This document shows, one piece after another, positions 11,172 to 57,056 of a stretch of 64,000 nt of DNA. The translations under genes were made by a program, and so were the position numbers. Source of the stretch: Planctomycetota bacterium (GTDB lineage: Bacteria > Planctomycetota > PLA2 > JAEUHO01). The notes beneath the pieces were generated by a model. It saw nothing but the letters and a program-made list of their open reading frames with translations. It searched no databases and was not told the origin of the DNA. The stretch covers positions 4,612 through 68,611 of the forward strand of contig JASJAY010000001.1 in assembly GCA_030066775.1 (NCBI GenBank). The letters run 5' to 3'. Each line of letters starts with the position of its first letter. Within the stretch, counting starts at the first letter, position 1.

Positions 11172-11422
11172 ACAACGGCACCCGATGAGTGACCTACGTG
11201 GATCGCTGCGACCGGGTTGGGTGGATAGCCTGCGACAGTGAGCTGCTTGCGCGCCGCCCGTCCCTCTTCCAAGTCAGTGGCGCCCAGGACGTCCTTGATG
11301 CACGACAGGGGGCCCTGTCCTTCAGGCGGAAGAGCAAGACACATCCGGAGCGGATGCCCGCTGAGAGTCCCACGACGGTCCGCAGGGGGATCCAACGGGT
11401 CGACGTAGTACGATCGCCTTCG

Positions 11423-14400
11423 ATGAACCTGGCTCGATCGCCGCGCGACCTCGCCACGCCTCGCAATGGCTTGCAGCGGTGGCACGGAGCCGTGGGCGCC
11501 GTTCTGTTCCTGGCGTACGTGCTGGTCCCTTCCGCAGCGCCGGCGAAACCTGACGAGGTCTTCGACGCGAACGGGTTGGTGGCGCGGTACACGTTCGAGG
11601 AAGGAACGGGATCCACGCTCCAGGATCACAGCGGAAAGGCGCATCACGGGCGCATCCGAGGCGCGACCTGGGTCGACACGCCCATGGGCGGCGCACTGCA
11701 GTTCAACGGTCGGGATGCCGTGACCGACCTGGGCCGGCCCCGCGGTCTCAACCTGGATGGTGACCTGACCATCGAGGTGTGGCTGCGGGCGTCCCTCGCC
11801 ACGATGAAACGCGGCACACAGCCCTTGATCTTCGGCATGAACGCCGGCCCAACGAAGACCCGCAACTACAACCTGCGGATCGATCACAAGCAACGCCTCC
11901 GGTTCGAGTGGGGCGACGGAGAGGCCGGGAGCTTCGTATCGACCTCCGCTGGGTTTCTGAACGGAGCCTGGCGCTACGTCGCCGTGGTCGTCGACTCGGG
12001 TAGCGGCGTGCACATGTTCGTCGACGGCAGCCTCGTGCACACGCAACGGGCCTCGATGCCGATCGTGGCGCGTCCGCCGCAGAACGTGACGATCGGGGGC
12101 TGGGGGCCGGGCTACTTCCAGGGGGAGATCGCCGAGCTCAGGCTCTTCAACCGCGCCCTGTCGACGGGCGAGATCCGGAAGCACGCGGGCCTCGAACCCG
12201 ACTCGGTCAAGGCGGCCCTGCGGCTGCATCCCTCCCACGACGTCCGCGGCAAGCGGGTGCACTGCGACGTGTTCGTAGAGTCAGGCGCTGCGCGGAATCC
12301 GTGGCTCGAGATCCGGCTCACAGACGCGCGCTCCGGTCGAGCGCTGGCGTCGACGAAGCGGAAGCTGGGAGCGCGGGGGAAGTCGGTCTCCCACTCGTGG
12401 CAGCGCGTGTCCATCCCGGCCGACATCCCGGCAGAGGGGATCGTGCGGGCGGAAGCGAGGTTGCTCGACGGACGGAGGAAGGAACTGGCGCGCGCCGGGG
12501 TCATCCGGGAGCTCGCGCCGGGCTGGCTGACGGCCGGGGTCGGCGTGTCGAACGAAGTCCCGCCTCCCTGGACCCCTTGTGTGACTCGCAAACAGAAGGG
12601 GCAGGTCACGGTCGACGTGTGGGGCCGGAAGCACCGCTTCGGTCGCGGCCCCCTGCTGGAATCCCTGACGAGCGGTGGTGCAGAGCTGCTGGCTGGGCCC
12701 ATTCGTCTGCCGGCGGCAGCGGGCGGTCGCGCCTTGCGGTGGAAGTGGAGCCCCCCGAAGCTCGTGGACTCCGAGGCGCGTCGGGTGGTCATCCGGCAGA
12801 GCGCTGTGGCCGGCGGCCTCCGTCTCACCTTGGACACGCAGCTCGAGTACGACGGCCTGTTGTGGACCGAAGCGCGACTCAGTACGCGCCGGGCCATCGA
12901 GATCGATCGGCTGGCCCTTGAGATCCCCCTGCCGGCCGATCAGGCAACGCTGCTCAACGTCTGGCGGGATCGAACCGCGTACGCGGGCCTCCTGAAGACG
13001 GATTTCGCCCACGCGTTCGCGCCGCTCCTGTGGATCGGGAACGAGCAGCGAGGACTGAGCTTCTGCGCCGAGTCGGATCAACACTGGGCGCCGGCCGACC
13101 CGGATCGTGCCCTCGAGGTCCAGCGCGTCGGCGACGAGACCCGACTGCGACTCAACTTCGTCACGCGGCCCAGCAGGCTGGCACCGGGTCGGCCCTGGAC
13201 GTATGCCTTCGGACTGCAGGGAACGCCCGTGCGTCCGATCGTCAAGAGCTACTGGGACCTTCGCGTCCACCGGATGCCCGTGTACAGCCGCGAGCTGGAG
13301 TGGCCCAAGCGGACGATCGGCGACACGCCGGCGCTCCAGCACTACGCCGAGCGTGGCGCCCGCGCCCTGATCGCCTGGGAATGGTGCGACACGTTCTCGT
13401 ACATGCTGCCGGTCGGGCGCGAGGAGTCCTTCCGCGCGCTTGTAGCCGCAATGGATGCACGCAGCCTGAAGGTGCTGCCGTACTCCATCGGGTTTCTCCT
13501 GAGTGATCGCGCACCAGAGTTCGACGGCTGGTCCGATGAGTTCCTACGTAAACCGCGGAGAGAGTTTCCCAGTCTCGGACCCGTCCTTCAGGACATCCCG
13601 CAGTCGATGTACTTCACGTGCCCCAACGGCCTCTGGAAGGACTTCGCCGTTGCGATGGCGGCGCGCTGCATGCAGGAGTATGGAGCCGGCGGCGTCTACC
13701 TGGACACGACCACGAGGCCGTTCGCCTGCCAGAACGGGTGTCACGGCTGTGGGTACACTGCGCCGGACGGCCGGCGCGTATCGACCTACCCGGTGCGAGG
13801 GGCGCGTGAGCTCATGAGGCGACTGCGCACGGCGGTCAAGGCATGCGATGCCGACGGGATTGTCGACGTGCATCCGTTCGACTGCTTGAACGTGCCCGCC
13901 CTGGCATACGCCGACGGCATGTGGATCGGCGAGCATCTGAGGCGCGTACCTCACAAGATCGACGCGCTGCCCCTCGACCGCTTCCGAACCGAGATCCTTG
14001 GACGCAACCTCGGGATCCCCTCCGACCTGCTCTACTACCGGCTGGCCGACTACGAGGCCTGCCTCGCCCTCGCGCTGCTGCACGACGTGCCGGTTCGCAG
14101 CGAGAAGGACGCCGATATCGACATTCTGGCGCAGGTCTACCGCATTCGGGACGCGTTCGGCTGTCGGGAGTCAGAGTTCATCGGGTACTGGGAGGTCGGC
14201 GACCGCATCCGCGTGTCCGGTCGGGACTGCCACGCGAGCCTGTGGAAGCATCCGAAACAGGGCGTGCTGGTCGTGATCTCGAACCTCTCGAGAGAAGAAG
14301 CGAACCTCGAGATCACGTTCGACCTTGCCGCCCTGGGCATCGGCTCAGGCGTCTCGGCCTACGACGAACGTCACGGCAAGCCGCTACCTATCAAGGGCGG

Positions 14401-14461
14401 CACCATCCGGTTGGCCCTACCCTCGCAGCAGTGGACGCTCGTGCGGATTCCACGCCGTTGA
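11423..14461 (+). CDS. Large LamG/concanavalin-A-like-lectin domain protein with a putative glycoside-hydrolase-like C-terminal region (membrane-anchored or secreted)
   Basis: N-terminal hydrophobic anchor. Laminin-G-like block (GAWRYVAVVVDSGSGVHMFVDGSLV...GEIAELRLFNRALSTGEI), then about 700 aa of unknown, possibly TIM-barrel, region. The start (ATG 11423 versus 11357) is uncertain. This is the only gene between the two tRNA-derived direct repeats. Confidence 0.55.
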   Translation: MNLARSPRDLATPRNGLQRWHGAVGAVLFLAYVLVPSAAPAKPDEVFDANGLVARYTFEEGTGSTLQDHSGKAHHGRIRGATWVDTPMGGALQFNGRDAVTDLGRPRGLNLDGDLTIEVWLRASLATMKRGTQPLIFGMNAGPTKTRNYNLRIDHKQRLRFEWGDGEAGSFVSTSAGFLNGAWRYVAVVVDSGSGVHMFVDGSLVHTQRASMPIVARPPQNVTIGGWGPGYFQGEIAELRLFNRALSTGEIRKHAGLEPDSVKAALRLHPSHDVRGKRVHCDVFVESGAARNPWLEIRLTDARSGRALASTKRKLGARGKSVSHSWQRVSIPADIPAEGIVRAEARLLDGRRKELARAGVIRELAPGWLTAGVGVSNEVPPPWTPCVTRKQKGQVTVDVWGRKHRFGRGPLLESLTSGGAELLAGPIRLPAAAGGRALRWKWSPPKLVDSEARRVVIRQSAVAGGLRLTLDTQLEYDGLLWTEARLSTRRAIEIDRLALEIPLPADQATLLNVWRDRTAYAGLLKTDFAHAFAPLLWIGNEQRGLSFCAESDQHWAPADPDRALEVQRVGDETRLRLNFVTRPSRLAPGRPWTYAFGLQGTPVRPIVKSYWDLRVHRMPVYSRELEWPKRTIGDTPALQHYAERGARALIAWEWCDTFSYMLPVGREESFRALVAAMDARSLKVLPYSIGFLLSDRAPEFDGWSDEFLRKPRREFPSLGPVLQDIPQSMYFTCPNGLWKDFAVAMAARCMQEYGAGGVYLDTTTRPFACQNGCHGCGYTAPDGRRVSTYPVRGARELMRRLRTAVKACDADGIVDVHPFDCLNVPALAYADGMWIGEHLRRVPHKIDALPLDRFRTEILGRNLGIPSDLLYYRLADYEACLALALLHDVPVRSEKDADIDILAQVYRIRDAFGCRESEFIGYWEVGDRIRVSGRDCHASLWKHPKQGVLVVISNLSREEANLEITFDLAALGIGSGVSAYDERHGKPLPIKGGTIRLALPSQQWTLVRIPRR

Positions 14462-14702: not shown

Positions 14703-15221
14703 GTGCCGTTGTCGACGCTGGAGCTAGGAGTCCGCGCCGCGGTCGTCGAGGATGCGGATGGCATCGCCCGCGTCGCCGCATCCGACGGGACCCAAACCAG
14801 GACCGAGATCCTTCCTCTGATCCGGACCGAGCTCGAGGAGATCGCAAGCGGCAAGCTGCATCGCTACACGTGCGTAGCCGAGGTCGATGGGACGATCGTG
14901 GGCTACGGTCGCTGCGCGGGCGACGACACGTTCACCAAGGGGTTCCCCCAGTTGCCCGATGGTTGGTACCTGTCCGGCGTCCTGGTGCTGCCGTCCAGTC
15001 GCCGTCGAGGCGTCGGCAGAGCGCTAACGCAGCACCGCATGGAGTGGCTACGCGAGCGCACCGAGATCGTCTACTTCCTCACGTCGGAGACCAACGTGCC
15101 CTCTGTGGCGCTCCACTCGGAGTTCGGCTTCGTGGAGATCCAGCGCGGCATTCCGCCCAAGACCGGGGACACACGCGGGATTCCGAGATGCCTCTTCCGA
15201 GCTCGGTTCAGCGACTCCTAG
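14703..15221 (+). CDS. GNAT-family N-acetyltransferase
   Basis: Acetyl-CoA-binding motif (VLPSSRRRGVGRALTQHRMEWL) in a GNAT fold of about 170 aa. The start codon (GTG 14703 or ATG 14604) is uncertain; the ATG option would read through the attR-like repeat. Confidence 0.6.
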   Translation: MPLSTLELGVRAAVVEDADGIARVAASDGTQTRTEILPLIRTELEEIASGKLHRYTCVAEVDGTIVGYGRCAGDDTFTKGFPQLPDGWYLSGVLVLPSSRRRGVGRALTQHRMEWLRERTEIVYFLTSETNVPSVALHSEFGFVEIQRGIPPKTGDTRGIPRCLFRARFSDS

Positions 15222-17029
15222 AAGCCGCCGTCTGCGTTGAAGCGGGCCAGGAACATGCCGTCATCTGCCGCGGGGCGGAGCGTGGTCTCGTTCGCCTCGC
15301 CCGCCCCGAAAGTCGAGTCACGACTGTACGCCTGGAAACCCAGCACGATGCACGAGCCGTCTGCGACAGCTGCGATGCCGAGGCCAGGTGAACCCAGCTC
15401 GCCCGCTGCGGTCTTGGCCCAGCTCAGCGTGCCGTCCGCCTTGTAGCGCGCCACGAGCAATCCGGTCGAACCGAACTGCGTAAGCGTGGTCGCGTTGGCC
15501 TCGCCCGCTCCGAAGATCGGGCTGCGAGCAAAGCTGCCTGTGACGACGCATGAGCCGTCCGCATGGGCAGCGATATCGAACCCGTTGCTCCTGCCATCCG
15601 TACCACCGTGGGTCTTCGCCCAGCGCAACGTGCCGTCCGCCCCGTACGAAGCGACGAACATGCTGGTCGAGGGCTGCGGGGAGAGTACGGAACCTCCCTT
15701 GACTGACGTGAGTGTGGTCTCGTTGGCCTCGCCCGCGCCGAAAGTGGCCGTGTCCTCGAACAAGCCGGTCACCACACACGACCCGTCCGCACGGGTTGCG
15801 ATGCCTTGGCCGTGGGCGTTCCCCGGGCTGCTTACGGCCCGTGCCCAGGTCAGCGTCCCGTCCACGCCGTAATGCGCTACGAAGAAGGCAGCGGCGAGCA
15901 CTTGGCCCCCTTGTGTCAGTGTCGTCTCGTTGGTCTCGCCTACGCCGAAGGTCACGCTGCCCGAGAATCCTCCCGTCACAACGCACGAGCCATCCGCGTT
16001 GGCTGCGATGTCCCGCCCGTAGCCTGTGCTGGTCAGCTCCCCAGGGCGCGCGGAGCCGGCGGCCTTGGCCCAAGTCAGCGTGCCGTCAGCGCCGTAGCGC
16101 GCGACGAAGCAGTCGCTGTAGCCCAAGGGGGTGATCGTCGTCTCGTTGATCTCTCCGACCCCGAAGGTCTCCGGCCTCCGCAGGATGCCCGTCACGACGC
16201 ACGAGCCGTCCGCGTACGTGGCGACGCCCTCGATGAAGCCGCCCTCCCGCTTGAGCCAGCGCAGCGTACCGTTCGCGTCGTAGCGCGCCACGAACGTGAG
16301 GCCCGCCAAGATGTACGAGCCGTCCGCGAAGGCGGCGATGCACTTGCCGCCGCCCTCCGCGATCTTGGCCCAGGTCAGCGTTCCGTCCGCGCCGTAGCGC
16401 GCAACGAAGGGACCGGTGTCGAGCGTGGTCTCGTTCGCCTCGCCGATTCCAAGAGTCTGGCCGCCCGAGACCGTGCCCGTGACGAGGCACGAGCCGTCGG
16501 GGAGGGCTGCGACGTCCTCGCCCGCGGTAATGCCGGGATAGCTCGTGCCACCCGCCAGCTTGGCCCAAGCTACGTTGCGAACCTCGACGCGACCTGGCGC
16601 GGTGGCCGTCACCCGGGTGTTCGTGCCATCCCAGGTCGTGCCCACGATGGTGTAGACCCCCTCCTTGGTGGTGGCCTGGGGCGTCAGATTCAGCGACAGC
16701 TGCTGGGTGATTCCGTCCATCTCATCCCGGGGGCCGCTGGTCGCGCAGCCGAGCGGGTCGATGCGCGTCTCATCACAGTCGAGATCCGCCGTGATCCAGG
16801 TGACAGCGGCATCGTCGGGGTCGTCGTCCGCGTACTCGATGGCGATGGTCGTGCTTGCGCCCCGACTCAGGACGACGTCCCTCGACGGCTCCGTGATCGT
16901 GAGGGTGGGGGGGGTGTTGATCAGCACGCCCGTGGGGGCCAGATCGCTACCCCCGCCGGAGGCGCCACAGCCGGCCAGCAAGAGGAGAACGGCAGCGCTC
17001 AACACGCCCACGACGAACCACGTACGCAT
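15218..17029 (-). CDS. Lipoprotein with tandem SBBP-type beta-propeller repeats
   Basis: Start MRTWFVVGVLSAAVLLLLAGCGA (lipobox LAGC) is preceded by GGAGG. At least 8 repeats of roughly 45 aa with consensus FVARYGADGTLTWAK...ADGSCVVTG...FGxGExNETTLT, matching SBBP repeats common in Myxococcota. Confidence 0.7.
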   Translation of the reverse strand: MRTWFVVGVLSAAVLLLLAGCGASGGGSDLAPTGVLINTPPTLTITEPSRDVVLSRGASTTIAIEYADDDPDDAAVTWITADLDCDETRIDPLGCATSGPRDEMDGITQQLSLNLTPQATTKEGVYTIVGTTWDGTNTRVTATAPGRVEVRNVAWAKLAGGTSYPGITAGEDVAALPDGSCLVTGTVSGGQTLGIGEANETTLDTGPFVARYGADGTLTWAKIAEGGGKCIAAFADGSYILAGLTFVARYDANGTLRWLKREGGFIEGVATYADGSCVVTGILRRPETFGVGEINETTITPLGYSDCFVARYGADGTLTWAKAAGSARPGELTSTGYGRDIAANADGSCVVTGGFSGSVTFGVGETNETTLTQGGQVLAAAFFVAHYGVDGTLTWARAVSSPGNAHGQGIATRADGSCVVTGLFEDTATFGAGEANETTLTSVKGGSVLSPQPSTSMFVASYGADGTLRWAKTHGGTDGRSNGFDIAAHADGSCVVTGSFARSPIFGAGEANATTLTQFGSTGLLVARYKADGTLSWAKTAAGELGSPGLGIAAVADGSCIVLGFQAYSRDSTFGAGEANETTLRPAADDGMFLARFNADGGF

Positions 17030-17265: not shown

Positions 17266-20200
17266 CTACCGCCTGCCGTCTTCGTCCTGTCCGGCGCTCT
17301 GCTCGGCATGCCGACGCGCGTGGACCACCTCGCGCGCCTTCTTCACGAGGTCTCGCGCGAGAGCCTCCACGTCGCCGGCCGGCCCTTTGACCTCAAAGGC
17401 TCCGATCTCCTCGCCGTTCAGCCAGACGAACCCCTTCACGGTCGCTGTGCCGTCGGCCGCGGCGTACGTGCCCGTCAGCTCGTAGGCCTCCGGCATCTCT
17501 GCGACGTCCACGAAGACGAGAGGCGCAATGCCCCGGGCCGACGCTTGCTCGCGCAGCACTGCGTTGGTCGCCGTCACCAGCGCATGCACGACGCGCGTTC
17601 GGCGATCGGTGAAGGTCGGGCGGACGAACACGGGCTTCTCGAGCTGCAGCGGGATGTCCTTGCGAAGCTCGGCTGGTACGCGACCGATGTCGAAGGACGA
17701 TCCGCCATACGGTGTCGCGATCCACGGCCGCTGGATCCCTCCGACGTCACGGGCGAGCTGCGGAACCCGGTCCGCGGCGAACCCGAAGAGACCCTGCACG
17801 TCGACGAACTCGTCCTCGCGGAGCGCCCCGCCGCGCATGCCCAGCAAGAGGGAGTAGGTGAGCAGCCCCTGGCCGTAGCGACTGGCCTCGAAGGAGAGGC
17901 TGTCCGCCGCGCAACCGGCCAAGACGAACATGCCCGTGCGGTCCTTCACCCGGTCGAGCGCACGCACCTGGCTGCTTGGCACGCTTCGGGACTCGGTCAG
18001 CTTCTCGATCACGCGCCCTGCGGCGCACGTATCCAGGATCAAGACCTGCCGGTCCCTGGCGGGGATGGCCTTGATGAGCTCGGTCATCTCACCGCTGGAA
18101 AGCGAAGCCTGCCGGCGGACCACGGGATCGGTCAGGTCGGCGCTGGCTGCCTCGGCGAGGAGGTAGTGGAAGTCCTCGTCCACACCGGCGCGACTCACGC
18201 CGTGCCCGGCCAGGTACACGACGAGCACGTCGTCGGGCCTCGCGGCGCGCGCCCACCGGAAGGCGTCGACGAGGGCTTGGCGCGTGGGTCGGGTCGTGCC
18301 TTCAGCACCCGACGTGCTGAGCACCCGAACGTGTGTGCGCTCCTCACCGAACAATGACCGGGCGCTCAGCTTCAGCGCGCGCGCGAAGTCCTCGGCGTCC
18401 TTGGCGGCGTATCGAAGGTCGATCGCGTCTCCGCGGTAGTCCGAGACGCCGCACACGATCGCCCAGAGCTGTGGCGGCGTCGACGACGTAGCACCGGGCG
18501 CCTTCCAGGGCTTCCGCCCGCCCCGGGGGCTGGAGAGGTACCCATCCTTGTTCCAGGCCACGACTTCGATCGTGTTCAGGCCCCCGGGCTTGATCGATGG
18601 GTGCTTGCGCAGGTCCACGGCAACCGATGCTTGCTTCGCGTCGGCGTTGAAGCCGGCGCCGCGTGCGTCCGCCTCGATCTCCTTCCCGTTGATCAGCACG
18701 CGAACGGCACCGATGCCTCCGCCGCGGTTCGTGAGATCCACGACAAGGAGGCCGTCGTCCCCGGGCGGCTCGAACTGGACGCTTGGGTAGAGGTCCACCC
18801 GATCTGCGGCGCTGACCTTGCGGAGGGGCTCGGTGCTATACCCGGCGTGCTTCGCCCAGAGTCCTGGGTCGTACGCGCGCTTCTTGAGCTGGGCGAGGTC
18901 CACGGTCTCGAAGCCGATGACCCAATGGAGCCCTTCGACATCGCCGCCATTGCTGGCGTCGTATCGACCGTCGCGATCGAAAACCGCCCAGGTGCCGTCC
19001 CGGAACACTACGCGGACGCAGAGCTCGCGGCCGGAAGCGACGTCCCAGAGTCGAACGGTATCGTCGCGCGCCGAGGAGATCGCGCGTTTCTCGTCGCGGG
19101 TGAACGCCACGCTGTAGACCTCGTTCACGTGTCCGCGAAAGCGCTGGAGCTCGCGGCCGCTCTCGAAGTCCCAGAGGATCACGTCATCGTTGTAATTCGC
19201 CGTGAGCAGACGCTTCCCGTCCCGGGAGAATACCGCGTCCAGCGTTCCCGCGAGCCCGTCCAGGGTCCGAACTTCGCGGCCGCTTGCGAGCTCCCACACG
19301 CGGCCCGTGTCGTCGTCGGGGCACACGACGTGCCCGCCATCGGGCGTGAAGAATGCCGAGAGCAGCCGCTGATCCTTGCTCGGAATGGTCAGCACCTCGT
19401 CGCCGGTATCGGTCTTCCGTAGGCGCACGACGCCATCCCGACAAGCGGTCATCACGATCGAACCATCCGCTGAGAACCCCATCGCTCGGAGGTGGCGGGC
19501 GTGCCCATCGAACACGCGCACCTGCTTTCCGGTCGCGACCTCCCAGAGGCGGGCCGTGTTGTCACGGGCGTTCACGCTTGCGGTGAGGATGTACTTCTCA
19601 TCCGGCGAGAACCGTCCGTTCGGAACACCGGTCGTCGGGCCGCTGCGGCGCGGAGCGGCGAAGCTCTTGATCTCGCGCCCCGTCCTCGCGTCGAGGATGC
19701 GCGGGATGTCCCCGCCACCGGTCAGCAGGCGGGAGCCGTCCGCAGAGAACGTCCCCCATGAGACGTAGTCGTCTCCCTCGAAGGTCCAGAGGGGCAAACC
19801 GCTGGACACCTCCCACAACTGCGCCGTACCGCTGCACGTCACGACGGAAGCGCCGTCCGGCGAGACGGTGATGGAGTTGGCCCCTCGCAACTTGCCGCCG
19901 AAGGTGCGAACGAGACTCCCTGTCGCGCGCTCCCAGAGATGCGCAACGGGGAACGAGCCGGTCGCGAAGTGCTTACCGTCGGGCGAGAAGGCCGCCGATA
20001 GCGTGGGGATGGTCGGCGCCTTCACGAGGACGCGTCCCGTGGCGACGTCGAAGATCCGTGCGACGCTCCAGGACGTCGTCAACGCCTGGCTGCCGTCCTT
20101 CGAGAAGGCCACGGCTTTGATCCCGGCGCGCATCTCCATCTCCCGGCCCACGGGCGTGCCCGCGAGCTGTCGGATCTCGCGTCCGGTCGCCACGTCCCAC

Positions 20201-20901
20201 AGGCGCGCCGTCTTGTCCCGAGAGCCAGTCAAGAGCTGCGTACCGTCAGGCGAAACCGCCACGGATTGGATCCAGGCTTCGTGGCCTTCGAACGTGCGGA
20301 CGATGCGGCCGGTGGCGGATTCGATCAGCCATGCGACCTTGTATGAGCCGCCGATGAAGTGCGCCCCGTCGGGCGTCATCGCCACGCAAACGGCCTGGCT
20401 TGGCGTATCGAAGCGCCGCACTTCGCGCCCCGTTTCGATCTCCCAGAATCGGGCGGTCTTGTCCTTGGAGACGGTCAGCGCATGCACGCCGTCCGGTGTG
20501 AAGGCTCCGGCTCGCACACGCTCCTCGTGTCCCTCGAAGCGAAGAAGCTCGCGGCCGGAGGCTGTGTCCCAGATGCGGGCCGTTCCGTCGTACGAGCACG
20601 TCAAGACTCGCGACGCGTCGGGCGAGAACACCGCCTCGCCGACGCGGCTCTCGTGGCCCAGGAACCAGCGGATCTCGCGCCCTGTCGCGACCTCCCAGAG
20701 GCGCGCGGAACTATCGGTTCCGCCGGCCGTGAGCAGATAGCGTCCATCGGGTGAGAACATCACGGAGTCGTTCTCGCCGCTATGCCCCAACTGCACGGTC
20801 AGAACGGCTCTCGCGCCCTCGTCCGGGCCTTGCTCCTCATCCCCCGCCCACACGGGCGCGGTCGCCAGGAGGATCAGCATCCACCTCGATACCCTCGACA
20901 T
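17266..20901 (-). CDS. Secreted WD40-repeat / caspase-like (peptidase C14) fusion protein
   Basis: Signal peptide, then about 14 WD40 blades (recurring ...TARLWDVATGREIR...GH...V..V.FSPDG). C-terminal caspase-fold domain with a His (VVYLAGHGV) and Cys (VLILDTCAAG) catalytic dyad. 1211 aa. Confidence 0.8.
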   Translation of the reverse strand: MSRVSRWMLILLATAPVWAGDEEQGPDEGARAVLTVQLGHSGENDSVMFSPDGRYLLTAGGTDSSARLWEVATGREIRWFLGHESRVGEAVFSPDASRVLTCSYDGTARIWDTASGRELLRFEGHEERVRAGAFTPDGVHALTVSKDKTARFWEIETGREVRRFDTPSQAVCVAMTPDGAHFIGGSYKVAWLIESATGRIVRTFEGHEAWIQSVAVSPDGTQLLTGSRDKTARLWDVATGREIRQLAGTPVGREMEMRAGIKAVAFSKDGSQALTTSWSVARIFDVATGRVLVKAPTIPTLSAAFSPDGKHFATGSFPVAHLWERATGSLVRTFGGKLRGANSITVSPDGASVVTCSGTAQLWEVSSGLPLWTFEGDDYVSWGTFSADGSRLLTGGGDIPRILDARTGREIKSFAAPRRSGPTTGVPNGRFSPDEKYILTASVNARDNTARLWEVATGKQVRVFDGHARHLRAMGFSADGSIVMTACRDGVVRLRKTDTGDEVLTIPSKDQRLLSAFFTPDGGHVVCPDDDTGRVWELASGREVRTLDGLAGTLDAVFSRDGKRLLTANYNDDVILWDFESGRELQRFRGHVNEVYSVAFTRDEKRAISSARDDTVRLWDVASGRELCVRVVFRDGTWAVFDRDGRYDASNGGDVEGLHWVIGFETVDLAQLKKRAYDPGLWAKHAGYSTEPLRKVSAADRVDLYPSVQFEPPGDDGLLVVDLTNRGGGIGAVRVLINGKEIEADARGAGFNADAKQASVAVDLRKHPSIKPGGLNTIEVVAWNKDGYLSSPRGGRKPWKAPGATSSTPPQLWAIVCGVSDYRGDAIDLRYAAKDAEDFARALKLSARSLFGEERTHVRVLSTSGAEGTTRPTRQALVDAFRWARAARPDDVLVVYLAGHGVSRAGVDEDFHYLLAEAASADLTDPVVRRQASLSSGEMTELIKAIPARDRQVLILDTCAAGRVIEKLTESRSVPSSQVRALDRVKDRTGMFVLAGCAADSLSFEASRYGQGLLTYSLLLGMRGGALREDEFVDVQGLFGFAADRVPQLARDVGGIQRPWIATPYGGSSFDIGRVPAELRKDIPLQLEKPVFVRPTFTDRRTRVVHALVTATNAVLREQASARGIAPLVFVDVAEMPEAYELTGTYAAADGTATVKGFVWLNGEEIGAFEVKGPAGDVEALARDLVKKAREVVHARRHAEQSAGQDEDGRR

Positions 20902-21032
20902 CAGGGGGCGATGCTACTCGCCTGAAGGAGCGTCCGTCCAGCCTGCCGATCCCTCTGGTCGGCGGGCTGGCACAGTTGACGTGAGCGCCGAGGCGGGGTT
21001 TCCTCATCCGTTCGTGAGCAAGGGGAGGTCAC

Positions 21033-21551
21033 GTGATCCGCCGTCTGACACCCGGAGACGCACACGCCTTCTTTCGCCTGCGACTCCTCGGCCTCGAGAT
21101 GCACCCGGAAGCGTTCGCGACCGGGGCGGACGCTTGGCGAGAGGCGACACCTGCGCAGGTCGAGGCCACGCTGACCTCGGAGGGCTCGTCTCGAGACAGG
21201 TTCGTGCTCGGGGCGTTCGTCGCCGATGAGCTGGCGGGTCTGCTCGGATTCAGGCGCGAGAGACGGCCGTCCGTTCGGCACAAGGGCAGTCTCTGGGGCT
21301 TCTTCGTTCACCCGGATCACCGCCGAAAGGGCCTCGGTACGGGTCTTCTCCGTGCGGCGCTCGACGAGGTGGCTGCGCAGGGCGGCGTGTCCTTCGTCCG
21401 ACTCGTCGTGACCGCGGGCGACGACGACGCGGCTCGCGTGTTCAGGGCTCAGGGCTTCGAGCCCTATGGCCGGGAGATCGGGGGCCTGCGTTCCGGCAAC
21501 GTGTTCTTCGATCAGGAGTTCATGCGCCGGGACCTGGAAGACGGAGGCTGA
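21033..21551 (+). CDS. GNAT-family N-acetyltransferase
   Basis: 172 aa. Motif A (HPDHRRKGLGTGLLRAAL). GTG start preceded by AGGGGAGG. Confidence 0.75.
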   Translation: MIRRLTPGDAHAFFRLRLLGLEMHPEAFATGADAWREATPAQVEATLTSEGSSRDRFVLGAFVADELAGLLGFRRERRPSVRHKGSLWGFFVHPDHRRKGLGTGLLRAALDEVAAQGGVSFVRLVVTAGDDDAARVFRAQGFEPYGREIGGLRSGNVFFDQEFMRRDLEDGG

Positions 21552-21778
21552 CCCGCTACTTGTCCGCACGCGCGACGGCGAGTCTGCTTCTGCGCGCAGG
21601 ATCCCGCAACGATGCAGTGCGTTACGATGGTCCCGCCTTGCCACGAATCGGTATGCTCCAGATGCCTGGGCATCTGGATCGGTTGTGCGTGTCGCAGGGT
21701 GGCTGCACGTCGGGTGCAGAGCGATCCCCGTCGTGGTGCACTGGCACGCGACTCGGTGCTCAGGACGGGAGGTTCGGC

Positions 21779-22336
21779 ATGACCCATCGGTTCCCCTGCC
21801 CCGTAGCCACGATCTTCTCGCGACGCGTGCGTCCCGGCTTCGAGGCGCGCTACGAGGAGTGGATGTCGGGCATCGTCGGAGCCACCAACGCGTTCCCTGG
21901 AAGCCAGGGCACGACCGTGCTGCGCCCATCTGCCAGTCGCCCGGAGTACCTCGCGATCGTCCAGTTCGACGCCCCGCGCAACCTCGAGCGCTGGATGGAG
22001 TCAGAGGATCGCGCGGCATGGCTGGGGAAGCTCGAGGACATCACGCTCGAGTCGGAGGAGATCTCCTCGATGACCGGCATGGAGCGCTGGTTCACGCTGC
22101 CGGACCGCGCCGTCTCGCAAGCGCCGCCGAAGCACAAGATGGCCGTGGTGATCTTCCTGGGCATCTATCCGTTGATCATGCTCATCGGGGCGCTGCTGCA
22201 GCCGATCGTCGGGCACTGGCCCGTGGCGCCGCGCATCCTCGCGTCGCTGGTGATCACGATTCCGCTCATGACGTGGATCGTGATGCCGTTGCTCACGCGC
22301 CTGTTCTTCGGCTGGCTCTATCCGGAGCCCACCTAG
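21779..22336 (+). CDS. ABM-like (antibiotic-biosynthesis-monooxygenase fold) domain fused to a C-terminal triple-TM segment
   Basis: ATG 21779 is preceded by GGACGGGAGG. N-terminal ~100 aa have an ABM/Dabb-like pattern. The C-terminus VVIFLGIYPLIMLIGALLQPIVGHWPVAPRILASLVITIPLMTWIVMPLL is hydrophobic. Start is internal to ORF 21560..22336. Confidence 0.5.
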   Translation: MTHRFPCPVATIFSRRVRPGFEARYEEWMSGIVGATNAFPGSQGTTVLRPSASRPEYLAIVQFDAPRNLERWMESEDRAAWLGKLEDITLESEEISSMTGMERWFTLPDRAVSQAPPKHKMAVVIFLGIYPLIMLIGALLQPIVGHWPVAPRILASLVITIPLMTWIVMPLLTRLFFGWLYPEPT

Positions 22337-28847: not shown

Positions 28848-30961
<2,114 letters not shown>

Positions 30962-30965
<4 letters not shown>

Positions 30966-31873
30966 GGCGCTCCGCCCAGGAGGCCTTGCGCCCGCGCCGC
31001 GCGCTCGACATAGCTCCAGTCCTCGGCCTTGGCCGGGAGATAGGTGGTGCAGCGGTTCGCGCGCAGGATCGCCGCGTGCTCCGGATTCCCCATGCTGAGC
31101 TCGAGGAATGCGTTGGTGAGACGCATGATGACGTGACGCGGCATCGTGCGCTGGACGGTCCACACGTAGTCGGCGTAGGGGGGCGTCTCGGCGAGCACGG
31201 TGACGTGCTGCGCGGACAGCTCGCCGGAGTCGAACTTCGCCTGCACGATCTGGGCGTTCGCGACGCCGATGTCGACGCGCCCGCTCTTGACCCACTCGAT
31301 CGTGTTGTCGTGTGTGCCCGAGAACTCCACGGAAGCGAAGAAGGCCTCCGGCACGATCTTGTCGTCCTCTTCGAGGAAGAAGAGCGGCATGATGTAGCCC
31401 GACGTCGAGAGCTCGTCGTTGAAGGCAATGCGCTTGCCCTCGTAGTCGGTCACGGATGCGCCCGCGCCCTCCGTGCGGACGATGTACGCACTCGTGAATC
31501 GCGCGTCCGTGTCCCGTGTGACGAGCGGCTCGGCCCCGGCGCGTTCGCGGGCCTGGACGAAGGTGGCGCCGCCCAACCAGGCCATGTCGATCTCGCCGCT
31601 GACGAAGCGATCCAGGATGTCGGTGTAGTTCTTCCCGGTCACCAGGTCGAACTTCAGGTCCGTCGACGCCTCGAGGTGTGCGAGGAGCGCGCCGTAGCGT
31701 TTCGCCAGCGCATCCTGGTCCTGGTCGGGGAGCACGCCCACCCGGAGTACGCCGGTCGGCTCGCGCTCGATCGCCCCCTCGCGCAGCTGCCACAGCTCGA
31801 AGCCGGAGATCCCCAGGCCCACGAGGGCGAGGAGGACCAGCAGGCGAATACCGCGCGGCATCGAGGCGATCAC
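30962..31873 (-). CDS. PhnD/SsuA-like periplasmic substrate-binding protein
   Basis: Signal/TM segment at the N-terminus. 303 aa with the PhnD-type pattern (VGVLPDQDQDALAKRYGALLAHLE...). Translationally coupled to the hybrid kinase. Confidence 0.65.
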
Positions 31874-32009
31874 GCCATGCTTCCTCCCGAACTCCCACTT
31901 GATCTTCGCCGGGAGCGCACGAGGCGCAAGGAGCGATCGGCGATCGAGCGCCGGCGTACAAGGACCCCCGCGAGGTGGTAGAAATCACGCAACCGAAGGG
32001 AGCGAGACG

Positions 32010-32528
32010 ATGAACTGGACCGCGCTGCTCAAGAGCGAGTTGGAGGAGACCTTCCGCGCGACCGAGGGGCTGATGGACCTCGTCGACGAGGACAAGCTCG
32101 ATTGGGTGCCCGAGACGGGCGAGAACTGGATGCCGACACGCCAACTGCTGCGCCACCTGACGAACGCGTGCGGCTGGTGCGCCGAGAACTTCGTCGAGGA
32201 TCGCTGGGCCGCGATCATGGCAGGCGACGGCAGCGACGCGCCGCCCTCGGACGTGCAGAGCGTGGCCGAGGCAAAGGCAGAGCTCGCGAAGGACAAGGCG
32301 CGCGCGCTCGCGACCGTCGAGAAGGCGGGGGAAGAGGCGCTCGCCTCGAAGATGCTCGCCGCGCCCTGGGATCCCACCGAGCGGCCCCTCGGGCAGCACG
32401 TGCTCCAGATGATCGGGCATCTGAACACGCACAAGGCGCAGCTCTTCTACTACCTCAAGCTGCAGGGCAAGCCCGTCAACACCTTCACGATGTGGGGCAT
32501 CCCGGAGCCGCAGGCGGACGCGACGTAG
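32010..32528 (+). CDS. DinB/YfiT-family four-helix-bundle protein
   Basis: 172 aa with His-containing DinB_2 pattern (LLRHLTNACGW...HVLQMIGHLNTHKAQL). Start is internal to ORF 31899..32528. Confidence 0.65.
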   Translation: MNWTALLKSELEETFRATEGLMDLVDEDKLDWVPETGENWMPTRQLLRHLTNACGWCAENFVEDRWAAIMAGDGSDAPPSDVQSVAEAKAELAKDKARALATVEKAGEEALASKMLAAPWDPTERPLGQHVLQMIGHLNTHKAQLFYYLKLQGKPVNTFTMWGIPEPQADAT

Positions 32529-51811: not shown

Positions 51812-52501
51812 TCAGAGCTTCTGATCGGCGTCGCCGACCCGGCGCTCCGTGCCCCGCAGCACGCGCTGGATGTTGCTGCGATGACTCCACACGACGAAGC
51901 CCGCCATGACAAGCAAGAAGGCGAAGACGACGAAGCGTGCGTGGAAGGTGTCGGCGCCGTTGTCGAGCCAGTACGACAGCGGCATCATCACCATCGCCGC
52001 GATCGAGCCCATGCTCATGTAGCGGGTGATGCCCAGGATCATGCCCCACGCCCCGAGGCCGGCGAGGGACGAGAGCGGCGCGAGGGCCGTGACGACCCCG
52101 AACATGGTCGCGACGCCCTTGCCGCCGCGGAAGCGCAGATACGGCGTGAACACGTGGCCGAAGATCGCGGCCGTGCCGGTGATGACCTGCAGCGCGAGGC
52201 CTGTGCTCTCCGAGTCGAGCACGCGGCCGACGGCCGCGGCGGCCTCCACCGAGAAGAGCGCGACGAAGAGTCCCTTGCCGAAGTCGAGCGCGAACACGAC
52301 GACGAACATCGCGATCGAGCGCCAGCCGGACCACTGCCGGGCGCAGTTCGTGGCGCCCACGCCGCCGCTCCCGACCTTGCGCAGATCCACGCCCTTGAAC
52401 GTGCGCGCCATGATCCAGCCGAACGGAATGCCCCCGATGAGGTACGCAGCAACGGCGAGGAGGATCTCGGCGGTCGGCGTTCCCATGCTGATGAAGGCCA
52501 T
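51812..52501 (-). CDS. plsY: Glycerol-3-phosphate acyltransferase PlsY
   Basis: About 229 aa membrane protein with PlsY motifs (GSGGVGATNCAR; FRGGKGVAT). Lies upstream of and co-directional with gpsA. Confidence 0.8.
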   Translation of the reverse strand: MAFISMGTPTAEILLAVAAYLIGGIPFGWIMARTFKGVDLRKVGSGGVGATNCARQWSGWRSIAMFVVVFALDFGKGLFVALFSVEAAAAVGRVLDSESTGLALQVITGTAAIFGHVFTPYLRFRGGKGVATMFGVVTALAPLSSLAGLGAWGMILGITRYMSMGSIAAMVMMPLSYWLDNGADTFHARFVVFAFLLVMAGFVVWSHRSNIQRVLRGTERRVGDADQKL

Positions 52502-52674
52502 GCGGGCTCCTGTGTCCGTCGGGGGCGGACCGTCGTCAAGATACCCCTGACGTGACCGTTCGGCAGCCTCCAGGCCCAGTGCGTGAACACGACGGCCATT
52601 CCGGCCGGCCGATGGTGCCTGACACGGCGCGACGCTAGGCTCACACGCCACCTCAGGGAAGGAGACCCCGGCCC

Positions 52675-54642
52675 ATGCCGCCCGCGCATCCGATCCGGCT
52701 CGGCGTCGACACGGGCGGCACCTTCACCGACGTCGTCTGGACGGGGCCGTCGGGGCGCGGGGTGAAGAAGCTCGCGTCCACGCCCGACGATCCGGCCCGG
52801 GCCGTGCTCGACGGCGTGGCCGCGGTCACGGGCGCGCTCCCTGCCGGTACGCCGTACACGGTGCACCACGGAACGACCGTGGGCACGAACGCCGTACTGA
52901 CGCGCGGCGGGGCGCGGGTCGTGCTGGTGACCACCCGCGGCTTCGAGGCGCTGCTCGCCGTCGGGCGTGGTCAGCGCGAGGGACTGCACCGCATGGCCCC
53001 GCGTCGCGTCGCGCCGTTGGTCGAGGTCGCGAATTGCGTGGGCGCAGAGGAGCGCATGGGCGCCGACGCGCGTCCGGTCCAGTCGCTGACGTCGGCTGCC
53101 CTCGATCGGCTCGCCGCCGCGGTTGAACGCCGCCGGCCGGAGGCGGTGGCGGTGTGCCTGCTGCATGCGCCGCGCAACGCCGCACACGAGAGGCGGATCG
53201 TGAAGCGATTGCGCGACGTGTGCCCCTACGTGTACGCATCGGCCGCGAGCTCGCCCGACCCGCGCGAGGTGGAGCGTGCGACGACCACGGTGCTCGATGC
53301 CTACGTCGCGCCGCTGGTCGCGCGCTACGTCGCGTCGCTGGCCGACGCGCTGCCGCCGGACGCGCTGACGATCCTGCGTTCCGACGGCGGTCGCATGGCC
53401 GTCACCGAGGTGCGCGCGTCGCCCGTGCGGACGCTGCTCTCCGGACCGGCGGCCGGCGTTGCGGCAGCCCGCGTCCTCGCCGCGCGACACGGCTTGCCGC
53501 GCGTGCTCACGTTCGACGTCGGCGGGACCAGCACGGACGTCGCCTGGGTCGAGGGCGGCGCGGCGCCGCTCGGCTCCGAGCTGCACGTCGGCCCCTTCGC
53601 CGCGGGCGTGCCGTCCGTGCCCATCGAGACCGTCGGGGCGGGCGGCGGGAGCGTGGTGCGCGTCGACAGCGGTGGTGCGCTTCGCGTCGGCCCCGAGAGC
53701 GCCGGGGCGGCGCCGGGTCCCGCCTGCTACGGACGCGGGGGGCCCTTCGCGTTGACCGATGCGTGGCTCCTGCTCGGACGCATCCCCGACGCGCTGCTGG
53801 GCGGCGACTTCGCGCTCGACCGCGCCGCCGCACGCCGTGCCGCGGCACGCGTCGCGAAGGCCGCGGGCCTCAGCGTGCCGGCCCTCTGCCGCGGGGCCGT
53901 CGCCGTGGCGGCGACCACCACCGCACGCGCGCTGCGCCTCGCGTCCGCCGCCCGCGGCCACGATCCGCGCGATGCGGCGCTGCTCGCCTTTGGCGGTGCG
54001 GGTCCCGTGCTGGCGTGCGACACGGCCGATCAGCTCGGCATGCGCGACGTGCTGGTGCCCACCGATCCGGGCACGTTCGCCGCATCCGGTGCGCTGGCCG
54101 CCCCGCTGCGCGCGGACGCGTCTGCGCTGGCGCCCGCGAAGGGTGGCGAGACGGCGCTCGACCGCGTCGGCAAGCGGCTACGGCGCGAGGTGGAGACGCG
54201 GCTCTTGGCCGAGGGGGCGCGCGGGCCCTTGCGCTTCGTCGAGGAGGTCGACGCGCGCTACGCGGGGCAGGCCTTCGAGGTGACGGTCGCACGCGACGGG
54301 TGGCGCGAGCGGTTCCACGACCGCCACGAGGCGCGATACGGCTTCGCCGACGCGCGCCGCCCGGTCGAGTGCGTGCGCCTGCGTGTCCGCGCGGAAGGCG
54401 ACGACCATCCGGGCGCGCGGCCCTCGGACGCGCACGTGGCCGCGCCGCGCCACGTGCGGACGCGGCGCCTTGCGCGGGATGCGAAGGGGGTCGGCACCTG
54501 TGCCCGCAGCACCTTGTCGCCGGGCGATCGCGTGCGCGGGCCCGCGCGCATCGACGAGGTGTCCGGGACGAGCTTCGTGCCTGACGGATGGAGCGCCGTG
54601 TGCCTCGGCGACGCCGCGCTGCGGATCGGGAGGACGCGATGA
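52675..54642 (+). CDS. hyuA: Hydantoinase/oxoprolinase family protein, A subunit (N-methylhydantoinase A-like)
   Basis: N-terminal IRLGVDTGGTFTDVV and internal FDVGGTSTDVAWVE match the Hydantoinase_A family. 655 aa. Confidence 0.85.
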   Translation: MPPAHPIRLGVDTGGTFTDVVWTGPSGRGVKKLASTPDDPARAVLDGVAAVTGALPAGTPYTVHHGTTVGTNAVLTRGGARVVLVTTRGFEALLAVGRGQREGLHRMAPRRVAPLVEVANCVGAEERMGADARPVQSLTSAALDRLAAAVERRRPEAVAVCLLHAPRNAAHERRIVKRLRDVCPYVYASAASSPDPREVERATTTVLDAYVAPLVARYVASLADALPPDALTILRSDGGRMAVTEVRASPVRTLLSGPAAGVAAARVLAARHGLPRVLTFDVGGTSTDVAWVEGGAAPLGSELHVGPFAAGVPSVPIETVGAGGGSVVRVDSGGALRVGPESAGAAPGPACYGRGGPFALTDAWLLLGRIPDALLGGDFALDRAAARRAAARVAKAAGLSVPALCRGAVAVAATTTARALRLASAARGHDPRDAALLAFGGAGPVLACDTADQLGMRDVLVPTDPGTFAASGALAAPLRADASALAPAKGGETALDRVGKRLRREVETRLLAEGARGPLRFVEEVDARYAGQAFEVTVARDGWRERFHDRHEARYGFADARRPVECVRLRVRAEGDDHPGARPSDAHVAAPRHVRTRRLARDAKGVGTCARSTLSPGDRVRGPARIDEVSGTSFVPDGWSAVCLGDAALRIGRTR

Positions 54643-56210
54643 GTCGTCGCGACGACCCGGTGGCGCTGGCGCTCACGCGCGACTTGCTCGAGAGCGTGGC
54701 CGAGGAGATGGCGGCCGTGTGCATCCGCACCGCCGTGTCCCCGAACGTGAAGGACCGCCGCGACCTGAGCGCGGCCGTCTTCGATGCCAAGGGCGTGATG
54801 GTCGCCCATGCCGCGCACATCCCCGTGCACCTCGGCGCGATGCCCCTGTCCGTGCGCGCCGTGCTCGACACGTGCCCGCTCGAGCCCGGGGACGTCGCGC
54901 TCGTGAACGACCCGTACGCCGGCGGCACGCACCTGCCCGACATCACGGCCGTGCGCGCCGTCTTCGATCCCGCGACCCAACGCCGTGCGTTCCTCGTCGC
55001 GGTGCGCGCGCACCATGCCGACGTCGGCGGCGCGGTTCCCGGCTCGATGGCGCCGGCCGACGACGTGTACGCCGAGGGCCTGCGCATCCCGCCGGTCCGC
55101 TGGGTCGTGAACGAGACGCCGGATCCCGGCGTCACCTCCCTGCTGCTCTCGAACATGCGCGACGCGGACGAGCGGCGCGGGGACTTGGCCGCCCAGGCCG
55201 GCGCGCTGCGGCTCGGCGAACGCCGCTTGCGCGAGCTCGCCGCGGGCGCCGGCGGCCTCACGCGATTGGCGCGACGCGGCGCTTCGCTCGTGCGCTACGC
55301 CGGGCGGTTAGCCGCCGCGGCGCTCGAGCGATTGGCCGACGGCAGCGCGAAGGCGCGGCTCGACCTGGAGGTCGACGGCGTCGACGGCAAGCCCGCGCGC
55401 GTCGCCGTGCGACTCACCAAGCAAGGCACGCGTCTGACCGTCGACTTCAGCGGGACGACAGGGCCGGTCGGCATGGGCTTGAACGCGCCACGCGCCGTCA
55501 CCCAGAGCGCCGTCTACTACTTCGTGCGCTGCCTCTGTCCGGACGGGACACCGACGAACGACGGGCTGATGGAGCATGTCGACGTCGTGGTGCCCGACGG
55601 CTGCCTGCTGGCCGCACGCCCGCCCGCGCCGGTCGCGGGCGGCAACGTCGAGACGAGTCAGCGCGTCGTCGACGCCCTCTGGCTCGCAGCGGCGCGGCTG
55701 TGGCCGGGCCGGGTGCCCGCGCCCGGCTGCGGCACGATGTCGAACTGGACCTTCGGCCGTGCGCCCGACGGGCCGCCGATGCCCTCGTACTACGAGACGA
55801 TCCCCGGTGGGGCCGGCGGGGGTCCCGACGGGGCCGGCGCCGACGCGATCCAGCAGCACATGACGAACACGCGCGGCACGCCGGTCGAGGTGCTCGAGGC
55901 GCGCTGGCCGGTGCGCGTCGAGCGGCTGGCCCTCCGGCCGCGGAGCGGCGGAGCCGGCAAGCAGGCGGGCGGGCGCGGCGTGATCCGCGAGGTCCGCTTC
56001 CTCGAACCGGCCGTCGTCTCGCTGATGATGACGCGCCACGCCACGCCCCCGCCGGGCGTCGCCGGCGGCAAGCCCGGACGCGCGGGCCGCGTGACGCTCG
56101 TGCGCGGCGGTCGGGCCCGCCGCCTCGACCCCCGAGCGCGCGTGGACATCCGCCCCGGCGACGTGCTCCGGATCGAGACCCCGGGTGGCGGTGGTTGGGG
56201 GCGCCCTTGA
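54639..56210 (+). CDS. hyuB: Hydantoinase B/oxoprolinase family protein (N-methylhydantoinase B-like)
   Basis: HyuB-family blocks (VNDPYAGGTHLPDIT; GCGTMSNWTFG). ATGA overlap with hyuA. Start is internal to ORF 54588..56210. Confidence 0.85.
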   Translation: MSRRDDPVALALTRDLLESVAEEMAAVCIRTAVSPNVKDRRDLSAAVFDAKGVMVAHAAHIPVHLGAMPLSVRAVLDTCPLEPGDVALVNDPYAGGTHLPDITAVRAVFDPATQRRAFLVAVRAHHADVGGAVPGSMAPADDVYAEGLRIPPVRWVVNETPDPGVTSLLLSNMRDADERRGDLAAQAGALRLGERRLRELAAGAGGLTRLARRGASLVRYAGRLAAAALERLADGSAKARLDLEVDGVDGKPARVAVRLTKQGTRLTVDFSGTTGPVGMGLNAPRAVTQSAVYYFVRCLCPDGTPTNDGLMEHVDVVVPDGCLLAARPPAPVAGGNVETSQRVVDALWLAAARLWPGRVPAPGCGTMSNWTFGRAPDGPPMPSYYETIPGGAGGGPDGAGADAIQQHMTNTRGTPVEVLEARWPVRVERLALRPRSGGAGKQAGGRGVIREVRFLEPAVVSLMMTRHATPPPGVAGGKPGRAGRVTLVRGGRARRLDPRARVDIRPGDVLRIETPGGGGWGRP

Positions 56211-56285
56211 GTTGCGGGTACCCTGCGGGATCCCCGTGGAAGCAGGCGAGACGTGTCTTCTGGGGGGATCGGAGGGCCCGTTCGC

Positions 56286-57056
56286 ATGCGACCCGAGCTG
56301 CGCTGGTTGGTGATGACGATCCTGATCGTCGGCGTCCTGCTCGCCATCTCGGCGCTCGCCCTCGATCGCCCGAACGTGATCTGGAGCACGGACGGCCCGG
56401 CGTGCCCGGCGTGCCGCAGCGAGGTGGCCTTCCACGCCAACAAGTGCCAGGGCTGCGCCACGGACTTCGACTGGACGATCGCCCCCGATGACGTCAGCCC
56501 CATCTCGAACCACAGCCTGTCGCGACTCGAGGCCGACGAGCTGCGCGAGCACATCGAGCGCATCGGCGAGGACGCGGCCGCGCAGCTGATCGCGCGCAAG
56601 CTCGAGATCCCCGAGGAGCGCGCCAAGGCGTACCTCGAGTCCCTCGCGCGCGGGCGCTGCGGGTTCTGCGGCGGCACCGGCGACGACCTGGGGAGCACCC
56701 AGGAGACGAAGGACTGCCCCGTCTGCTTCGGCGACGAAAACTGCATCGCCTCCGGCGGCACGGGTCACAGCACCTGGGGCGACGAAGCCGCCGCGCGCGC
56801 CTTCGGGCGCCTCGAGCAGGAGATCCGCGCGCTCTCCCCGCGCCTGCCCAAGCCGATGCGTGCCAGCGAGCTCGAGCGCCTCGTGCGTGCGTTCCTCGCC
56901 GACCACCTCGGTACGACCCAGGCCGCCCGGCTGCCCTTCTGGCAGGACCTGATCCACGCGGAGGCGTCCGAGAACACGCCCCGCCGCGCAGCGGACGTCG
57001 GCCGCGCGCGCCTCGATCTCGTCATGACGTTCTTGCGAAACGCGGACGGCCCCTGA
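56286..57056 (+). CDS. Membrane-anchored hypothetical protein with two Cys4 zinc-ribbon-like motifs
   Basis: TM segment (WLVMTILIVGVLLAISALAL). CPACRSE...CQGCATDF and CGFCGGTGDD...CPVCFGDENC. Confidence 0.5.
   Translation: MRPELRWLVMTILIVGVLLAISALALDRPNVIWSTDGPACPACRSEVAFHANKCQGCATDFDWTIAPDDVSPISNHSLSRLEADELREHIERIGEDAAAQLIARKLEIPEERAKAYLESLARGRCGFCGGTGDDLGSTQETKDCPVCFGDENCIASGGTGHSTWGDEAAARAFGRLEQEIRALSPRLPKPMRASELERLVRAFLADHLGTTQAARLPFWQDLIHAEASENTPRRAADVGRARLDLVMTFLRNADGP

Follow-up and report, generated by a model that had tools for sequence, protein, structure and literature searches.

Domain organisation of the WD40-caspase

The gene described here lies on the reverse strand of a 64,000-nucleotide stretch of a Planctomycetota genome (GenBank assembly GCA_030066775.1, contig JASJAY010000001.1, positions 4,612 to 68,611; henceforth the window, whose own numbering is used throughout) and encodes a WD40-caspase fusion protein. 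Its coding sequence, 17266..20901, has 1211 codons, as an initial annotation of the window had stated, and is complete, with an ATG start and a stop codon. The GC contents at codon positions 1, 2 and 3 (0.68, 0.51 and 0.85, in a window of ~68% GC) follow the pattern of a real gene, and the product is identical to NCBI MDJ0972839.1, a "caspase family protein" from a Planctomycetota metagenome-assembled genome. From its N-terminus the protein shows a linear arrangement of a predicted signal peptide, a pair of WD40 propellers with seven blades each, a connector, an FN3/Ig-like β-sandwich, a C14 peptidase domain and a last domain that appears to resemble LptE, PqiC and the N-terminal domain of TolB (TolB-N). 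All parts of the gene given below are likewise on the reverse strand.

Matches to WD40 profiles extend over residues ~36-625 (Pfam PF00400, 229 bits; cutoff 27), with blade motifs at residues 49, 92, 134, 175, 216, 266, 305, 346, 385, 431, 476, 518, 558 and 600. The AlphaFold2 model of the mature protein (predicted local distance difference test, pLDDT, 90.5; predicted template modelling score, pTM, 0.86) has 56 β-strands up to residue ~641, i.e. 14 blades of four strands, in agreement both with the 14 motifs and with the first count of about 14 blades; the high pTM suggests that the arrangement of the domains is fixed. Blades 1-7 form propeller 1 (residues ~32-333, 19903..20808) and blades 8-14 propeller 2 (residues ~334-641, 18979..19902), the border between the two being approximate and the last strands being provided by the conserved sequence ELCxxxxFxDGxWAV. 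The best structural match of this region is 2ymu (E = 9e-48, 28% identity), a highly repetitive 14-blade WD40 protein of Nostoc punctiforme, followed by other tandem-propeller proteins including Apaf-1. The likeness to 2ymu, and to the WD40 repeats of fungal NLR proteins (HET-E/NWD), lies in the tandem 7+7 propellers, but those proteins are cytoplasmic whereas the window protein is predicted to be exported, and its own blades are old and diverged, only ~19% identical to one another compared with 59-69% in the homologs P0002, P0003 and P0004.

Between propellers and protease the initial annotation had placed a linker of ~150 residues of unknown fold. Structure prediction replaces it with two folded domains (residues ~640-800, pLDDT 85-97). 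The first is a small connector of short strands and helices (residues 642-706, 18784..18978), which carries the motif GRYDASNGGxVxGLHWV...QLKxRYYEPGLL and the residues P679, L681 and P706, invariant in the family alignment, and has no Pfam match. The second is an FN3/Ig-like β-sandwich (residues 707-800, 18502..18783) with the motifs LTNRGGGIG and IEVxAxNxxGYxS. A further folded domain of ~130 residues at the C-terminus had been missed altogether (residues ~1085-1211, 17269..17649). It is an α/β domain with a long terminal helix, and its predicted fold appears to be like that of LptE, PqiC (DUF330), TolB-N and CsgG. Only fold comparison is informative here, as its profile finds no PDB match even at E = 10 and no Pfam match, and a separate Pfam scan of residues 630-1211 returns Peptidase_C14 as the sole match. 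There is no detectable sequence similarity between this domain and LptE, PqiC/DUF330, PelC, TolB-N or CsgG, and the putative LptE/PqiC/PelC-type fold belongs, in the window gene, to a domain of a protease rather than to a free lipoprotein.

The catalytic domain and its predicted specificity

The caspase/metacaspase-like catalytic domain (clan CD, family C14) spans residues 812-1074 (17680..18468) and matches Peptidase_C14 (PF00656) with 52.7 bits, above the gathering score of 21.4 (E = 6e-14). It has the caspase-hemoglobinase α/β fold, which bears out the caspase fold first assigned to the protease domain together with its His and Cys dyad. The catalytic His900 (motif YLAGHG, codon 18202..18204) and Cys959 (motif LDTCAAG, codon 18025..18027) are located at the C-terminal ends of predicted strands and align with the GHG and DSC motifs of yeast Yca1 and Arabidopsis MC4 (AtMC4). 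Both are invariant among 79 aligned family members, in which the invariant positions include H900, G901, D957, C959, D835, D891 and E1005.

Three of these invariant residues bear on substrate specificity. Acidic residues proposed to line the S1 pocket are D95 and D211 in TbMCA2 and D365, D462 and E500 in MALT1 (PMC4357240). Asp835 in helix α1 (18397..18399) is the equivalent of TbMCA2 Asp95 and MALT1 Asp365, and Asp957, two residues before the catalytic Cys (18031..18033), that of TbMCA2 Asp211 and MALT1 Asp462; both are predicted S1-pocket acids and align with Asp residues of Yca1 and AtMC4. Glu1005, in the loop after β5 (17887..17889), is a candidate for the equivalent of MALT1 Glu500 in loop L5. 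Because the S1 pocket is, on this alignment, acidic through the invariant D835, D957 and E1005, the enzyme should cleave after Arg or Lys, as metacaspases, orthocaspases and paracaspases do, rather than after Asp. Directly after the strand bearing the catalytic Cys there is an exposed loop (KLTESR|S) containing Arg972 (17986..17988). Since the loop is of low confidence in the model (pLDDT ~53 at residues ~960-969 and below 50 at 964-966) and the Arg is kept in at least 90% of sequences, Arg972 is a plausible site of autoprocessing or activation.

No prodomain-type Pfam match is found and the loop after the catalytic Cys is short; the window enzyme appears to resemble orthocaspase-like bacterial enzymes more than type I or type II metacaspases, which differ from it in their Pro-rich or zinc-finger prodomain and long p20-p10 linker. 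In comparison with metacaspases, orthocaspases and MALT1 as a group (MEROPS C14, subfamily C14B), sequence similarity is limited to the p20 part, the window protein differs by its predicted export, and the 14 WD40 blades and the FN3-like and LptE-like domains are additions.

Export

The N-terminus has the three regions of a Sec (SPI) signal peptide, predicted to comprise residues 1-19 (MSRVSRWMLILLATAPVWA, 20845..20901) with cleavage before G20. By inspection the n-region is MSRVSR, the h-region WMLILLATAPVW, and the c-region ends with V-W-A at positions -3 to -1, followed by G; the hydrophobic core has a mean Kyte-Doolittle hydropathy of 2.33 and the h-region is 12-13 residues long. Assignment was by sequence heuristics together with conservation in the family, where a signal-peptide feature is present at the N-terminus of 68 of 78 aligned homologs, and a signal peptide or lipobox in 163 of 189 full-length members (86%; a lipobox in 23 of the 163). 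Most of the members without an export signal are truncated gene calls. There are two candidate starts, M1, used in the 1211-residue MDJ0972839.1, and M8 (20880), used in another NCBI-sourced entry of 1204 residues. A GAGGTGG stretch stands just before M8 at very short spacing; M1 gives a canonical positively charged n-region, whereas a start at M8 retains the hydrophobic core and leaves no positively charged n-region.

The predicted signal peptide of the initial annotation is therefore upheld by its n, h and c regions, its V-W-A|G site and its conservation. The accompanying view that export is unusual for a caspase-like enzyme does not hold for this family. Because a signal peptide or lipobox recurs in so large a part of the membership, export is, judged from the sequences, a trait of the WD40-caspases, in keeping with the envelope-type fold predicted for the C-terminal domain. 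The literature had already noted such segments: N-terminal transmembrane (TM) or signal segments are fairly frequent in bacterial metacaspases (PMC3501461).

The same N-terminus could instead be an uncleaved signal anchor, fixing the protein in the inner membrane with its domains in the periplasm. The start ambiguity, with an M8 version lacking a positive n-region, and the 12-13 residue hydrophobic stretch would allow this, and the 2012 survey (PMC3501461) was itself unable to tell TM helices from signal peptides. However, a TM helix would normally be longer than this h-region, the V-W-A|G site after it satisfies the -3/-1 rule, and the lipoboxes of 23 relatives imply processing by signal peptidase II, so that we regard a membrane-tethered form as unlikely.

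Export is also central to the comparison with apoptosomes. It had been proposed that WD40-caspase fusions recall apoptosome-style scaffolds and act in cell-death signalling, i.e. that the WD40 region senses a signal and scaffolds activation of the caspase, leading to death or abortive infection, as in Apaf-1 or the bacterial caspase-NACHT/NB-ARC-WD40 STAND proteins. The likeness to these is a caspase-family protease combined with a tandem WD40 propeller of the C-terminal-sensor type. The same two domains are paired in the apoptosome, and the structural matches of the propellers include Apaf-1; one homolog adjoins a NACHT protein and an Mrr nuclease. Yet Pfam scans find no NTPase domain anywhere in the protein, with WD40 matches over residues 36-625 and Peptidase_C14 in residues 630-1211, and without an NTPase the analogy fails. 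The domain order is moreover reversed (WD40 N-terminal, protease C-terminal) and a predicted signal peptide is present, from which it follows that nucleotide-driven oligomerisation cannot be the mechanism of the window protein. The export signals predicted for this protein and for 86% of its family would put the enzyme beyond the cytoplasm and out of reach of ATP. With the NCBIfam model for EACC1-associated caspases of conflict systems (caspase_w_EACC1, NF047832) the protein scores 73.8 bits, below the cutoff of 140, and the inspected loci contain no conserved effector or partner gene, the neighbours in the window being housekeeping or miscellaneous genes. An apoptosome-like device is accordingly a highly improbable explanation. 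Membership of a defence system was also considered and rejected, since the PADLOC matches are weak and generic (HEAT-ARM, 1e-9, on a WD40 stretch; caspase, 1e-8, a match that would favour a death-signalling role) and the EACC1 score is below its cutoff.

A widespread family

An exhaustive search with residues 630-1211 yielded 1,614 cluster representatives (50% identity) at E <= 1e-30. Of the 150 best matches, nearly all have a module of ~560 residues at the C-terminus, mostly starting near residue 620-700 of ~1,200. The last ~560 residues of the window protein (connector, FN3-like domain, C14 domain and C-terminal domain) are on this sequence evidence a single conserved module that defines the family. 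A scan of species-representative genomes gave at least 456 family loci, with ORFs of ~1,150-1,300 residues. The family spans at least nine phyla; the hosts include Planctomycetota, Acidobacteriota, Bacteroidota, Gammaproteobacteria, Desulfobacterota (Desulfobacter curvatus DSM 3379, which is in culture, is one), Armatimonadota, Chlorobiota, Nitrospirota and Entotheonella. Tandem or closely spaced sets of two or three copies of the ~1,200-residue gene occur in about 8 of 80 genomes (loci L001, L004, L007, L057, L058, L067, L068, L075, L078 and L083). In the window tblastn returns the gene itself alone.

No accessory domain is more frequent in bacterial metacaspases than WD40, which 10.9% of sequences contain (PMC3501461), and a Psychroflexus torquis genomic island described in 2014 holds four large WD40-repeat proteins of the metacaspase family, in a region whose signal-peptide genes were flagged as putatively secreted (PMC3914696). 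The WD40-metacaspases of these two reports (the former by Asplund-Samuelsson, 2012) are of the same architecture class as the window protein. These reports had already noted signal peptides and the clustering of paralogs; they are descriptive only, and define neither the 560-residue module nor the fold of the C-terminal domain. The window gene is a new member of this known, uncharacterised family, and an ordinary one: already annotated and stand-alone.

Proposed function

Taken together, these features make it likely that the window protein is a Sec-exported cysteine endopeptidase of clan CD, of the metacaspase/paracaspase type and most likely periplasmic or attached to the envelope, which is guided by its WD40 domains and acts alone. 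In such a mechanism the tandem propeller would be a platform selecting a protein substrate or an activating ligand, held at a distance from the catalytic domain by the connector and FN3-like domain, while the catalytic domain would cut after Arg or Lys outside the cytoplasm. The C-terminal domain may attach the enzyme to part of the envelope or bring about its oligomerisation, by analogy with PelC, PqiC, LptE and TolB-N, and the conserved Arg972 loop, positioned beside the active site, could receive the autoprocessing or activating cut. The family loci examined share no conserved neighbouring gene, and the protease would be expected to act alone in targeted extracytoplasmic proteolysis, and not in an ATP-driven death-signalling complex.

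Several points weigh against this assignment. The signal-peptide call depends on heuristics and conservation and is compatible with either a cleaved peptide or a membrane anchor, and the choice between M1 and M8 is ambiguous. The candidate equivalence of E1005 to MALT1 Glu500 derives from its position in the loop, and the Asp-rich stretch that follows the catalytic His in metacaspases such as Yca1 is not among the conserved columns of this family. The fold matches to PelC, LptE and TolB, and to FN3, were allotted to the individual domains, as seems probable from the model, from search output that carries no aligned ranges. Lastly, as the initial annotation had noted of bacterial WD40-caspase fusions in general, the literature gave surveys and genome descriptions and no functional study of any family member.

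A protein exported in this way might alternatively be a non-specific nutritional exoprotease which degrades environmental protein, the propellers and FN3-like domain being mere modules for adhesion or stability. There has been speculation that bacterial metacaspases have extracellular roles, protein degradation included (PMC4933709), the family is often encountered in heterotrophic Bacteroidota, Planctomycetota and Acidobacteriota, and secreted clan-CD proteases are structural relatives, namely the gingipains RgpB and Kgp (C25) and the C11 clostripain-like proteases of Bacteroides. These relatives belong to other families, however, and have no propellers; this group has type IX secretion (T9SS) with a dedicated C-terminal domain, and an N-terminal prodomain, in all of which the window protein differs. 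A 600-residue double propeller strictly kept across ~1,600 clusters would be costly for a bulk protease, and in the repetitive homologs variation is confined to the ligand-binding face of the propeller, as would be expected of specific recognition. In its predicted fold the C-terminal domain resembles envelope-docking proteins and not secretion tags. NCBIfam and Pfam scans detect neither a T9SS-type C-terminal domain nor a PEP-CTERM signal. A purely nutritional role therefore seems improbable, and the WD40-guided, targeted protease is preferred.

The repetitive homologs allow a more speculative extension, which we put forward as a rather doubtful idea. In P0002, P0003 and P0004 the differences between blades fall almost entirely after the 'GH' and in the 'GS-x-D-x-TA' motif, the positions of top-face contacts, so that, as far as sequence can tell, the scaffold of these blades is homogenised and their binding face variable. 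Near-identical blades varying at the top face are a pattern familiar from repetitive WD40 proteins such as 2ymu and from fungal NLRs. The family might then constitute an extracytoplasmic surveillance system, in which the two propellers serve as a diversifying receptor, its ligands being foreign or variable proteins of the envelope space, and binding licenses periplasmic cleavage after Arg or Lys. Such ligands might be toxins, proteins of phages or predators, or surface proteins specific to kin. The hints are the 59-69% identical blades with their variable top face, the tandem paralog arrays, and the neighbours of some homologs, which include an extracytoplasmic function (ECF) sigma factor and kinase-WD40 protein, NACHT or Mrr. 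Given its old, diverged blades and its lack of a paralog, the window copy would in this scheme be a member of fixed specificity.

Discussion of bacterial caspase homologs usually centres on programmed cell death and on how apoptosis arose, while a large and broad subset is, as described here, built for work outside the cytoplasm, each member combining a huge protein-recognition platform with an envelope-type C-terminal domain. Naming the substrate would clarify a common and neglected part of envelope proteolysis. If the hints of diversification hold, the family would represent a new class of extracytoplasmic sensing, and if surveillance is indeed its function, an ATP-independent, extracytoplasmic counterpart of NLR-type sensor-protease immunity.

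Gene neighbourhood

Upstream, a 372-residue ORF abutting the WD40-caspase start (20901..22019, reverse strand) is an Arg/Ser/Pro-rich off-frame artefact, and it was rejected together with an apparent upstream gap of 658 bp. The true upstream neighbour is a GNAT acetyltransferase gene (21033..21551, forward strand; PF00583, 57.8 bits), divergent from the WD40-caspase and separated from it by a 131-bp intergenic region.

Downstream lies a gene for a lipoprotein (15218..17029, reverse strand; ATG at 17029), whose product begins MRTWFVVGVLSAAVLLLLAGC with the lipobox LLLAGC. Its N-terminal ~150 residues have no match, and they are followed by about eight repeats of the form 'DGSCVVTG...FG.GE.NETTLT...FVARY.ADGTL.WAK'. 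Pfam DUF5122 is matched at 30.1 bits against a cutoff of 27; the NCBIfam model Lepto_SBBP_lipo (27.9 against 400) and the delta-60 repeat model (36.8 against 76.5) fall below their cutoffs. By its sequence this is a related β-propeller repeat protein with a weak resemblance to SBBP proteins, and not a certified SBBP member.

It had been suggested that the lipoprotein is a partner or substrate of the protease; in the fuller form considered here the two genes are a co-transcribed functional pair, and the lipoprotein might also serve as an anchor. The co-directional lipoprotein gene 236 bp away is confirmed, though not its SBBP identity, and both products are predicted to be exported. Neither terminator nor promoter is detected in the 17030-17265 gap, a result that is uninformative for Planctomycetota, and the absence of an intrinsic terminator would at most permit co-transcription. 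On the other hand, 236 bp is long for an operon junction, and in 85 family loci there is no tblastn match to the window lipoprotein or to the GNAT, ABM-like and GH123-like neighbours; over all 86 homolog loci covered, the lipoprotein is missing from every one. Five neighbourhoods inspected by hand, one of them around the closest relative (65% identity), have nothing in common, and the GNAT gene next to this relative is unrelated to that of the window (E = 0.30). With nothing conserved in these neighbourhoods or loci the operon or partner hypothesis was rejected, and a functional pairing is very unlikely. The neighbours in the window are of miscellaneous or housekeeping type (GNAT, ABM-like, APH, DUF3124, RibD_C, QueA and GH123/LamG).

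Some neighbours and loci were noted in their own right. Converging on the lipoprotein gene is a gene (11189..14461, forward strand) for a 1090-residue protein with Laminin_G_3 and GH123 N-terminal-type domains, probably an exported glycoside hydrolase-like protein. Elsewhere in the family, the family gene at the Nitrospira locus L004 has genes for further WD40 proteins and for a Peptidase_C14+S8 fusion around it, and the homologs at L001 (1812..5698, reverse strand) and L003 (9670..12588, reverse strand) have as neighbours either an ECF sigma factor and Ser/Thr-kinase-WD40 pair or a NACHT-like protein with an Mrr nuclease, none of which occurs in the window. A second long ORF in the window, of 1194 residues (28848..32432, reverse strand), has no similarity to the WD40-caspase by tblastn and may be an off-frame artefact, as by GC at third codon positions it overlaps the better-supported ORFs 30962..31873 (reverse strand) and 31899..32528 (forward strand). 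The composition profile also shows a segment of raised GC content at 52001..58000, 0.74-0.76 compared with ~0.68 elsewhere in the window.

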